A stretch of DNA of 32,000 bases from Cuniculiplasma divulgatum (GCF_900083515.1 NZ_LT671858.1:930001-962000), one strand, 5' to 3'; positions 522 through 2,804 are shown, counted from the first letter of the stretch. A program made the numbers and translations. The notes: a model not told the origin generated them from the sequence alone.

Positions 522-1046
522 TTATTTTGGGAAGTATTCTCCTTTCTCAAGTATTACCTTTAATGGAACATTAACCGTACTTGACCCAATATTTACCTGT
601 AGTATTCGCGTAGTCAGATTACTTAGAAAAGGTTTTATAATATCTTCATTTTTAAAGACTAAAACGTATTCGAACTCTACATTTAGACCTAGGTTTAACA
701 GATTGTTCAATCCTAGTTTGCCTTCTTCTATCTTTTTCCCTAAAAAAAGATCAATGGTTGGTTGAAGTTTACCTTTGATTCTATTTATTAGTTGTTTCAA
801 TTGATTATCCTTAAGAGAAGCGTTAACTCCTTTCATTTCGAATATAATGACTTTATTTTTCTTACTTCGATAAATTAGAGCTAGATCAGCATGTGGGGTA
901 CTTTTCCCAAAACAGACCTCCTCCAGGTTCATAAGAGATACAAAGTTTTCTACCTTTTTAATTGTAACACTACAATTACAGTCCTTAAAATTAGTTGAAT
1001 AAGATCTTGCGTCATGATTTAATGTTCCACTCATAATTTCAATCAC
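522..1046 (-). CDS. Small (174 aa) protein with a PD-(D/E)xK nuclease-like core motif; second gene of the ATPase operon
   Basis: ORF starts at GTG 1046 (or ATG 1034), 93 nt downstream of the ATPase stop on the same strand. Motif: LEEV (E42/E43), then PHAD54LALIY, then VIIFE70-M-K72-G (codons verified at 885-887 and 831-839), followed by NQLKQLINR. The spacing and hydrophobic beta-strand context match the D...(D/E)xK restriction-endonuclease fold. Confidence 0.6.
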   Translation of the reverse strand: MIEIMSGTLNHDARSYSTNFKDCNCSVTIKKVENFVSLMNLEEVCFGKSTPHADLALIYRSKKNKVIIFEMKGVNASLKDNQLKQLINRIKGKLQPTIDLFLGKKIEEGKLGLNNLLNLGLNVEFEYVLVFKNEDIIKPFLSNLTTRILQVNIGSSTVNVPLKVILEKGEYFPK

Positions 1047-1139
1047 TCATCATTCTGTTCCTTCTACTAAGGTTACTGTCCAGTCTAGCAACTTCATAAG
1101 AACTTCATCTGTTATACCTGGTATTCCATTCTCAAACTC

Positions 1140-2804
1140 CTAGAGATTAATTTTCTTTACCCCCTTTATCCTATCAACAAAGTATGAATCAAATTCACAT
1201 TCCTGTAAAGATTTGGAAACCTGTTTGGCCAAGTCACTTATTTCAATCTTATCACTCCCTTTTCTTTCAACATTCATTACATTGTCAATTAAAGTCTGTA
1301 TCTTTTCTGGATTCGGTTTATACTTGTGGAGTAAATAAAAAACCTGACCTATGATGCTACTATGAGTCGAAAATACAATTCTTTTTCCCATTGAAGACAA
1401 TACAATCAGCGTTAGTGCCATTATAACTTGAGATGAAGGATGTAATTGAGATTCAGGTTCCTCTATTATTAGTAGTCCATTCTTCATAGACTTCGCCAGA
1501 AGGAGTATACCAGACACCTCACTAGCCATTGCTGAAGCGTATTTTAGATCGACCTTAACATTCATATTGTCCGTATAAAACAAACGTTTTGTTAGTTCAT
1601 CATATGATAAGTTACCTTGAAGAACTGTGAATGTATCAAATGGGAAATCTTTTTCGATGGAAACCATCTTCTCTGAAAAATCTATCCAATCAATAAAAGC
1701 CCTATATATGTACTCTGTAGAATCGTACAATAAATCATTATTTTCAAAGATGTTATAATTCTTAAAATAGCGATGAGAAATAATAAGAGGGGTTTTTCCA
1801 AAAGGTACAAAACGAACTTCACTAATGCTTGAAGAGAATTCTATTAAGGAATGCATATGAGCTAGGAAATAATCTACCATTGCCATAGAAATGCTCTTTG
1901 AGAAAGCTTTCGGAATCTCCCTAATCTCAAATAGACTGTATTTCGAAATTTTAACATTTCTAACTTGTGATACTATGCTTTTCGTCAATTGATTTAAGTT
2001 AATCTCATCTTTATGGTGAACTTTAGCATTTTTATCAATAGGTCCCACAAAAGTATTTCTCAGTAAAATATTAGCGGTAACCTTTACTTTGATGTTAACA
2101 CTTGATACTGCTAACATTGAGTATTCAACACTCATCTTAAAACTATCCTGAATTCTTGGAGTTAAATAAAGCATCCCAGAAGAGCCAAATTTTCCGGCGA
2201 TCGAATCATAAGTTAAATTTCCAATTTCTGTTTTAAGAATATTATATAGATTATCATCATTTATATTAAAACTTTTAATAGACCTAACGCCAATAATGGA
2301 AGAGATAAATCTGACGATGGTATTTTCCAAATTTTTATTGATAGACTCTATACTAATCGGAATTGTAATCTCTTCGCTAATAGTATATGATAATCCATCA
2401 CCTGAATTTTCTAAGTTAAGTTCTGGTATAATTTCGTTAATTGTTCCAAATAGAACTTTATTGAGTGATTCTTGATTATTCAATGGAATTTTTTCTTTGT
2501 TGACGACATTTGAAACTCTATCCATAATTTCTAAAACATCATTAAAGGTTTTAGCTAAATTATTTAGACTATTTCCAATGTGACTAATTAATAGATCATT
2601 TAGATAAGTTTGACAGTAAACTTTCATTAAATCTCTCATTTTTAGATCTAACACAGAAAGCGTACTATAGAGTGATCTTAAAATAAATGATTTTCCTGAA
2701 TTTGGGCGGCCATATAATATTGTAATGTTAGAGTTTTTAATGGAACCTTTCTTTTTTATAGGACCTATGTTTTTGAATGTAAATGTTAAATCTTCATTCT
2801 TCAT
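1140..2804 (-). CDS. ABC/SMC-like P-loop ATPase (AAA_15/AAA_21 type, 554 aa) with a long insert between the Walker A and Walker B halves
   Basis: Walker A GRPNSGKS at aa 32-39 (nt 2688-2711). Near aa 444 it has GLLIIEEPESQLHP (Walker B plus D-loop-like), then RIVFSTHS (H-loop). About 380 aa between the two halves carry no motif I recognise. Confidence 0.85.
   Translation of the reverse strand: MKNEDLTFTFKNIGPIKKKGSIKNSNITILYGRPNSGKSFILRSLYSTLSVLDLKMRDLMKVYCQTYLNDLLISHIGNSLNNLAKTFNDVLEIMDRVSNVVNKEKIPLNNQESLNKVLFGTINEIIPELNLENSGDGLSYTISEEITIPISIESINKNLENTIVRFISSIIGVRSIKSFNINDDNLYNILKTEIGNLTYDSIAGKFGSSGMLYLTPRIQDSFKMSVEYSMLAVSSVNIKVKVTANILLRNTFVGPIDKNAKVHHKDEINLNQLTKSIVSQVRNVKISKYSLFEIREIPKAFSKSISMAMVDYFLAHMHSLIEFSSSISEVRFVPFGKTPLIISHRYFKNYNIFENNDLLYDSTEYIYRAFIDWIDFSEKMVSIEKDFPFDTFTVLQGNLSYDELTKRLFYTDNMNVKVDLKYASAMASEVSGILLLAKSMKNGLLIIEEPESQLHPSSQVIMALTLIVLSSMGKRIVFSTHSSIIGQVFYLLHKYKPNPEKIQTLIDNVMNVERKGSDKIEISDLAKQVSKSLQECEFDSYFVDRIKGVKKINL

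Follow-up and report, generated by a model that had tools for sequence, protein, structure and literature searches.

Introduction

Two bacterial phage defense systems, HEC-02 and PD-T4-4, are the closest characterized architectures to the gene pair described here, which lies on the minus strand of a 32,000-nucleotide (nt) stretch of the Cuniculiplasma divulgatum genome (NZ_LT671858.1:930001-962000; the whole stretch is called the window, and positions are counted from its first letter). The pair consists of the gene for an ATP-binding cassette (ABC)-type ATPase followed by the gene for a small predicted nuclease, and Cuniculiplasma, the source of the window, is a Thermoplasmatales archaeon. 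HEC-02 (Hma-embedded candidate 02), represented by the Dickeya dianthicola proteins WP_024108366.1 and WP_024108365.1, combines an ABC ATPase with a NERD-like PD-(D/E)xK nuclease, and both are required for phage defense (Payne et al., bioRxiv 10.1101/2024.01.29.577857). PD-T4-4 is a validated two-gene system of E. coli made up of an AAA_15-type P-loop NTPase and a PD-(D/E)xK nuclease (Vassallo et al. 2022, PMC9519451). A third system, PARIS, is reported to have an ATPase scaffold that holds the nuclease and releases it once a trigger is sensed (PMC11464382).

Judged by analogy with these systems, the archaeal pair is most likely an unnamed case of the same class principle, with an architecture already known in bacteria from HEC-02 and PD-T4-4. 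The first-pass annotation of the window, made from its sequence alone, had taken the pair for a candidate defense module of a kind not assignable to any named system, a statement that overlooks these two systems of the same architecture. As far as the comparisons below can tell, the pair appears to be a self-contained, horizontally mobile and archaea-specific operon encoding an ABC-type ATPase of 584 amino acids (aa) at full length and a ~170-aa predicted nuclease of the PD-(D/E)xK fold. We favor, with appreciable reservation, the view that it is an archaeal relative of the bacterial ATPase-plus-nuclease antiviral systems and works by the mechanism proposed below. The experimentally tested defense systems that we know of are almost all bacterial, and archaeal immunity beyond CRISPR and restriction-modification (R-M) is, to our knowledge, poorly charted. 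No current idea is overturned by this pair because ATPase-nuclease pairs are already a well-known theme. If it is validated, the class of ABC ATPase plus PD-(D/E)xK nuclease would extend into Archaea, and mechanistic studies would gain a family of small nucleases whose catalytic motif is clear. The two-gene family is compact and rare, and its nuclease is invisible to the defense-annotation models tried. In the literature searched, no published description of the pair in Cuniculiplasma was found.

Comparison With Described Defense Systems

The likeness to HEC-02 begins with the layout, a two-gene operon in which the ABC ATPase comes first and a PD-(D/E)xK nuclease of ~170 aa, in the archaeal pair a predicted one, second, the genes overlapping or abutting; HEC-02B (169 aa) and the archaeal small protein (~170 aa) agree in length. 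When the archaeal ATPase was scanned with the PADLOC models, its best match was PD-T4-4_A (E-value 7.5e-15), and it also matched HEC-02A (9.5e-12) and the PARIS ATPase AriA (5.4e-11). The HEC-02A match is partial, pairing ATPase residues 394-499 with positions 188-295 of the 338 in the model, and an hhalign comparison with the Dickeya HEC-02A sequence aligned the Walker B/H-loop region only (probability 73%). The Dickeya sequences for hhalign came from the supplement of the HEC paper. HEC-02A has 342 aa whereas the archaeal ATPase has 584, the ~240 extra residues lying in the archaeal insert and the conserved C-terminal tail.

Comparisons with the small protein used its whole family. A word-indexed search had returned one relative besides the protein itself. 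When 1.84 billion representatives were searched exhaustively with a profile, 27 clusters at 50% identity emerged, all of 150-177 aa except three fragments. The HEC-02B model is weakly matched by 5 of these 27 members (best E-value 1.5e-4, residues 26-97 against 21-96 of 171, collinear), and the window's own small protein is not among them. With hhalign, HEC-02B aligned to the family profile with the D..ExK..K core in register, its E-V-K falling on the ExK, a weak match with an E-value of 0.007 and a probability of 5.5%. The bacterial HEC-02 occurs inside Hma systems, whereas the archaeal family is free-standing.

PD-T4-4 provides the best PADLOC match of the ATPase, but this match is limited to the Walker A and Walker B/H-loop stretches. 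One of the 27 small-family members matched PD-T4-4_B (E-value 0.019), and one matched PDC-M47B. The PD-T4-4 nuclease is listed under PF11645, which is absent among the matches listed for the small family (25 of 31 Pfam families). Membership in PD-T4-4 was rejected since the small protein of the window has no match to PD-T4-4_B.

The AriA model spans nearly the whole ATPase (residues 9-485 against 7-372 of 373), and by analogy PARIS is a plausible mechanistic template for the archaeal pair. Its effector AriB, however, is a Toprim/DUF4435 protein, whereas the archaeal effector is predicted to have the PD-(D/E)xK fold. Membership in PARIS was rejected because the downstream gene has no Toprim or AriB match and the pair has no further conserved companion gene. 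OLD and GajA belong to the same ABC ATPase clade as the archaeal ATPase, and several GajA models match it weakly, but in these proteins the Toprim domain is fused to the ATPase, whereas the archaeal nuclease is separate and of another fold, and there is no GajB-like helicase. Septu, Gabija and Lamassu were rejected since the operon contains no HNH PtuB, no Toprim-GajA with GajB and no LmuA partner. Hachiman HamA is a structural match of the modeled small protein, but the TM-scores are 0.35; moreover, HamA is larger, at 245 aa, and partners with the helicase HamB and not with an ABC ATPase. A clustering of the archaeal ATPase with housekeeping RecF/RecN/SbcC-type proteins or with a named system, either of which the first-pass annotation had said would count against its proposal, did not emerge from these comparisons.

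The ATPase

On its sequence, the large protein is an ABC-type ATPase of the AAA_15/AAA_21 (OLD/AriA-like) clade with the corresponding motifs (Table 1). Pfam assigned it to AAA_21 (32.1 bits, cut-off 27), while AAA_15 stayed below its cut-off at 21.7 bits. Homologues form about a dozen clusters at 90% identity, with identity down to 25%, and motif conservation was read from an alignment of nine of them that covers the same range. Besides the Walker A motif, the invariant positions define family-wide forms of the signature-like motif (S-A-x-x-x-E-x-x-G), of the Walker B motif with its D-loop (EEPExQLH) and of a family-specific motif, VRFVPFGKTP in the window (V-x-F-x-P-x-G-R-T-P family-wide), which probably marks the Q-loop region, at the core strand that follows the insert. 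These results bear out the first-pass annotation, which had described an ABC-type ATPase with a long insert.

The insert of ~275 aa has low conservation, many insertions and deletions and no Pfam domain. In the nomenclature given in the HEC paper it would be the 'Insert 1' of ABC ATPases, and it is a candidate sensor region; 'Insert 1' is thought to set trigger specificity (bioRxiv 10.1101/2024.01.29.577857). Further PADLOC matches of the ATPase were partial (PDC-M56A, NsnB, Old, GajA) and in several cases weak as well (PtuA 6.7e-4, GajA 1e-5 and weaker, LmuB 1.1e-3). The sole solved structure found by the ATPase sequence was the OLD-family nuclease 6p74 (E-value 1.6e-8), which matched over the Walker B/H-loop region only, and NCBIfam gave nothing useful.

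The Small Protein as a Predicted Nuclease

In the alignment of the 27 small-family sequences, mean column identity is 27%, and N40, E42, D54, E70 and K93 are invariant while K72 is present in 26 of the 27 (residue numbers of the small protein count from a GTG codon, as in the 174-aa open reading frame (ORF) described below, unless marked 'from ATG'). The residues that the first-pass annotation had picked out as a nuclease core, an E, a D and an ExK, are thus invariant or nearly so across the family representatives. Conservation of this degree, here and in the ATPase motifs, far exceeds what chance would give. An AlphaFold2 model built from the 27 sequences (pLDDT 88.2, pTM 0.86), which replaced a mediocre earlier model from six sequences (pLDDT 74.7), places D54 at the start of a strand, the ExK in the next strand and K93 in the long helix that follows.

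The best Foldseek matches of this model in the PDB include BsmI, HamA (probability 0.85), SfsA, NucS/EndoMS, McrC and Cap4, and further FokI, EcoO109I, Card1, MspJI and DdmD; those in BFVD include UL24/UL76, Mrr and PD-(D/E)xK entries. HamA was the most probable structural match with two independent models (probability 0.85-0.87). When each family member was scanned singly against Pfam, six PD-(D/E)xK families appeared among the matches listed (25 of 31 families), all of them below threshold: DUF2726 (four members), PDDEXK_9 (three), HamA (one), VRR_NUC, HSDR_N_2 and UL24. Against PDB sequences, the profile of the small protein gave matches at E-values >0.2 only, one of which was the nuclease motif of EcoP15I Res, with D54 aligned to D898 and E70-M-K72 to E-T-K.

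Taken jointly, these lines of sequence and model evidence, none of which is decisive by itself, make a PD-(D/E)xK nuclease the clear best reading of the small protein. The assignment as a predicted nuclease rests on motif conservation and fold class because the window's small protein has no significant structural, Pfam or PADLOC match. Of the PD-(D/E)xK core that had been proposed for it, the conserved motif stands, in the alignment and in the predicted strands, whereas the fold matches include nucleases of this kind without any being significant. A confident non-nuclease fold, an outcome that the first-pass annotation had named as speaking against its proposal, did not emerge from the AlphaFold and Foldseek analyses. 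As a separate observation, a distant subclade of the small protein (P0039-P0057) has a conserved C-terminal Cys-Gly motif, xCGxxIW, which the clade of the window lacks.

Synteny and Distribution

Wherever a locus includes downstream DNA, the ATPase gene is directly followed by the small gene, and the two either overlap or are at most ~30 nt apart. This count covers the metagenomic and Cuniculiplasma loci, those reached from distant small-protein homologues and about 30 loci in GTDB. In loci that appeared to be exceptions in the hidden Markov model scan, a small ORF with the HCD...ELK motifs was present on inspection. The adjacency that the first-pass annotation had asked about thus holds as strict synteny across archaea. 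In two Desulfurococcales loci from metagenome-assembled genomes, the nuclease gene is frameshifted (L034:5543-6052 and L025:1193-1611), which may reflect real decay or assembly error.

A scan of 185,579 GTDB species genomes with the ATPase alignment gave only 36 loci. A clear member of the family (>100 bits) is present in about 31 of them, all archaeal, and the few bacterial matches align to generic ABC motifs only. The family spans at least five lineages of archaea, Asgard archaea among them, and its hosts are Thermoplasmata, Archaeoglobus, Thermococcus, Desulfurococcales/Thermoprotei, Bathyarchaeota, Thorarchaeota and Promethearchaeota. A search of the viral contigs of IMG/VR did not recover the pair, and a viral origin was rejected on this basis. 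A repeat-bounded mobile cassette was likewise rejected, as no convincing direct or inverted repeats flank the pair, and so was a conserved third gene, since none of 342 flanking ORFs compared all-against-all with BLAST was shared by more than four loci. These sequence comparisons suggest that the pair is a self-contained accessory module, and its patchy distribution is consistent with horizontal transfer. In three loci only (L019:7678-7950, L036:3072-3386 and L048:2293-2607), homologous ORFs of ~90-105 aa abut or overlap the ATPase start; in one subclade, this upstream ORF may add a third component to the pair.

A Segregating Nonsense Allele of the ATPase

Both ORFs of the first-pass annotation are present on the minus strand, 554 aa at 1140..2804 and 174 aa at 522..1046, and a script check placed all of the motifs quoted from them at the residues given. 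The distance of 93 nt between the two ORFs was also correct, but its reading as an intergenic spacer was not, as this DNA continues the ATPase frame and all homologues read through it. Every homologue runs 30-50 residues past the end of the window ORF, and where the homologues read KINL-E-EFENGIPGITDEVLMKLLDWT across codon 555 the window has TAG. The full-length protein of 584 aa occurs in sister strains. Its stop codon (TGA, 1050-1052) precedes the small gene's ATG (1034) by 15 nt. The longest ORF of the small gene starts at the GTG at 1046, but the ATG at 1034, which gives a protein of 170 aa, is probably the true start because the small-protein homologues begin with MSGT. The operon promoter presumably lies within the intergenic region 2805..3369.

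In L052 and L053, loci with the 584-aa allele, the sequence differs from that of the window by five single-nucleotide polymorphisms in 2283 nt, one of which is the GAG/TAG difference at codon 555. The tail and the small nuclease gene are identical between the 554-aa and 584-aa alleles, and the 90% cluster mixes 584-aa sequences with several different 554-aa ones, the latter found in isolates and in many metagenomes. The window ATPase is identical to C. divulgatum WP_148689751.1, and the small protein matches one from Cuniculiplasma sp. C_DKE at 100% identity. The TAG does not stem from an error of sequencing or assembly, as the 554-aa form is found in WP_148689751.1 and in many independent contigs, in several variants. 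From these sequences, the window copy of the ATPase is a recent, segregating nonsense allele (E555*).

The tail that is lost contains three family-invariant residues (G563, I564 and W575) and is recognizable too in the upstream ATPase fragments of two distant loci (L014 and L015). The local ATPase copy may be weakened or inactive because E555* removes these family-conserved C-terminal 29 residues. It is a matter of speculation that the tail, whose codons immediately precede the nuclease gene, could serve as a contact or control element. The natural Cuniculiplasma alleles, 584 aa against 554 aa, provide a ready-made test of its role.

Proposed Function and Alternative Explanations

The antiviral reading starts from what is observed: the ATPase motifs, the E/D/ExK/K set, the predicted fold class, the adjacency of the genes, the patchy distribution, and neighborhoods that vary and often hold defense genes. 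Among 124 ORFs that flank the pair in 20 related loci are MNT (five), HepT, PIN and integrases (three each), OLD/AriA/HEC-01A-like ATPases and DUF1156/HmaB methyltransferases (four each), viperins, RAMPs and type IIG R-M proteins (two each), and also type II methyltransferases. CRISPR genes are among the variable neighbors of the pair in related loci as well, and a group II intron reverse transcriptase is found among those of the metagenomic loci.

Drawing on the validated systems HEC-02 and PD-T4-4 and on PARIS as analogues, we propose that the ATPase would oligomerize via its ABC heads and that its large variable insert would sense an invader cue, which could be foreign DNA or its ends or a viral protein. 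ATP binding or hydrolysis would then license or release the small metal-dependent nuclease, and the nuclease would cleave nucleic acid such that the virus or plasmid is blocked or the infection is aborted. It is from the same analogies that we infer the formation of a complex, sensing by the insert, the substrate of the nuclease and the defense phenotype. A more far-reaching form of this proposal is that the pair is the first known case of an archaea-specific immune system that merits its own name, ranging from Thermoplasmata to Asgard and evolutionarily distinct from HEC-02 and PD-T4-4, in which the unique ~275-aa insert and the tail sense an archaeal-virus cue that no bacterial system senses and control a ~170-aa nuclease family for which Pfam and PADLOC have no model. 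We put this form forward tentatively and would sooner expect it to fail than to hold.

Several observations weigh against the antiviral reading. The likeness of the ATPase to named systems is restricted to generic ABC motifs. The small protein of the window matched no Pfam model and no PADLOC model at an E-value <=1, and the Foldseek searches of the PDB and BFVD gave no match at 1e-3 (best E-value 8.5e-3, TMq <=0.35). The local ATPase is truncated by E555*. The surroundings of the pair in the window, which had been read as a defense islet, are a variable region rich in glycosylation genes and insertion sequences (IS), made up mostly of glycosyltransferases and IS elements, and not a convincing islet of this kind; the defense signal comes from homologous loci elsewhere. 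Some related loci are flanked by housekeeping genes (RNA polymerase B, tRNA synthetases), and the enrichment of defense genes around the pair consists of raw counts without a genome-wide background, which makes it suggestive and not proof.

The alternative that survives best, and one we consider unlikely, is an addiction or toxin-antitoxin (TA)-like module in which the nuclease is the toxin and the ATPase its regulator or antitoxin, and which stabilizes islands or mobile elements and is not antiviral. Such a module overlaps mechanistically with abortive-infection defense, and the Pfam label of AAA_21 is 'putative AbiEii toxin, Type IV TA system'. In several loci the pair also sits among TA genes (RelB/Phd/HicB in L011-13, AbiEii/Fic/PIN in L010, and MNT/HepT pairs), and its gene order and tight coupling are like those of two-gene TA operons, but it was not found on the viral contigs searched and neither flanking repeats nor a recombinase travel with it. 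Both isolates and many metagenomes carry the truncated ATPase allele alongside an intact copy of the nuclease gene, which is hard to fit to an antitoxin role unless the tail is dispensable, and the closest characterized architectures, HEC-02 and PD-T4-4, are phage defense systems.

Rather less probable is that the small protein has a restriction-endonuclease-like fold and is non-catalytic, acting as a DNA-binding or adaptor subunit of a pair engaged in DNA transactions other than cleavage. The weak structural matches and the lack of any curated nuclease model above threshold among the Pfam matches listed would suit this explanation, as would the lysine of the ExK, which is absent in one family member; L039 appears to have E-I-D at the ExK. 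Across phyla, however, the E...D...ExK set and the additional lysine are invariant or nearly so at 17-25% identity, a pattern to be expected of active enzymes but not of degenerate folds. A housekeeping pair for DNA repair or chromosome maintenance, like Rad50/Mre11, RecF/RecN or NucS-type proteins, is highly improbable: long inserts occur in the ABC ATPases SMC, Rad50 and RecN, the small protein has NucS/EndoMS as one of its structural matches and a few loci adjoin core genes, but the SMC/Rad50/RecF/RecN/SbcC class was rejected given that the Pfam scan of the ATPase gave no SMC_N, RecF or Rad50 match, that the clear loci are so few among the GTDB species genomes and all archaeal, that neighborhoods vary by locus, and that the nonsense allele segregates naturally and frameshifts interrupt the nuclease gene in L025 and L034.

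Features of the Window and Its Variable Neighborhood

Table 1. Coordinates of the ATPase-nuclease pair, its motifs and the neighboring features in the window.
Feature	Position	Strand	Remarks
ABC-type (AAA_15/AAA_21, OLD/AriA-like) ATPase gene	1140..2804	minus	Starts with ATG; 554 codons, ends at premature TAG
Walker A GRPNSGKS, residues 32-39 (K38)	2688..2711	minus	G32, P34, N35, G37, K38, S39 invariant
Insert of ~275 aa, roughly residues 50-325, from Walker A helix to next core strand	1830..2657	minus	Boundaries approximate, inferred
Family-specific motif VRFVPFGKTP, residues 330-339	1788..1817	minus	V330, P334, G336 invariant
ABC signature-like motif YASAMASEVSG, residues 422-432	1509..1541	minus	S424, A425, E429, G432 invariant
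Walker B and D-loop LLIIEEPESQLHP, residues 444-456	1437..1475	minus	E448, E449, P450, E451, Q453, L454, H455 invariant
H-loop FSTHS, residues 478-482	1359..1373	minus	H481, S482 invariant
Premature TAG stop, codon 555	1140..1142	minus	GAG (Glu) in full-length allele; homologues have E
Orphaned in-frame ATPase tail, 29 codons EFENGIPGITDEVLMKLLDWTVTLVEGTE and TGA at 1050-1052	1050..1139	minus	Translation
Small PD-(D/E)xK-like protein gene	522..1034	minus	170 aa from ATG at 1034
Conserved acidic E42 (E38 from ATG), N-L-E motif (NLEE at 40-43)	921..923	minus	Invariant in 27 sequences
D54 (D50 from ATG), 'D' of PD, within HADLAL 52-57	885..887	minus	Invariant; strand 51-55 in model
E70-M-K72 (E66/K68 from ATG), (D/E)xK, IFEMK at 68-72	831..839	minus	Strand 60-68 in model
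K93 (K89 from ATG), N-K-F/L-x-x-T motif	768..770	minus	Invariant; helix 76-98 in model
Intergenic region, 565 nt, upstream of ATPase gene, divergent from COG1373 ATPase gene	2805..3369	.	No ORF of note
C-terminal tail of Schlafen-group-3-like helicase (DUF2075 type)	1-192	+	Convergent with nuclease gene
Two paralogous COG1373-type ATPases (AAA_14 + DUF4143)	3370-4629 and 8937-10142	+	
Truncated ABC-transporter ATPase fragment	8075-8494		Between the COG1373 genes
IS3-like element	12752-13033 and 13036-13836		HTH_Tnp_1 ORF and rve integrase, respectively
DDE_Tnp_1 transposase	13998-14894		
DUF772 transposase fragment	23298-23810		
Surface-glycan gene island	16740-22818 and 24093-31981		Glycosyltransferases, DUF2079, FkbM methyltransferases, epimerase, GHMP kinase

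Among the neighbors named in the first-pass annotation, the helicase tail, the two COG1373 ATPases and the IS elements were recovered (Table 1), while no Doc remnant was found in the window ORFs scanned. No tRNA or Rfam match was found anywhere in the window. The Schlafen-like helicase, which has 593 aa in L052, neighbors the pair in all Cuniculiplasma loci examined. Base composition shifts at 13-15 kb, where the G+C content reaches 0.38-0.40, compared with about 0.31 in the rest of the window. The pair adjoins glycosyltransferase genes also in other Thermoplasmata loci (L001, L011-L013), and the glycan genes and the pair may favor the same variable genomic hot spots.

Upstream of the pair, a 3.8-kb segment (3426-7240) that takes in the first COG1373 gene, a 165-aa membrane/zinc-ribbon ORF and a 108-aa ORF is present in the window and in L054-L057 and absent from L052/L053, the loci with the full-length ATPase allele. 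A 5' segment resembling that of the second COG1373 gene (about 8860-8971) suggests recombination between the paralogues. A direct repeat of 167 nt with 78% identity (4911-5077 and 5986-6152) lies within this variable segment.

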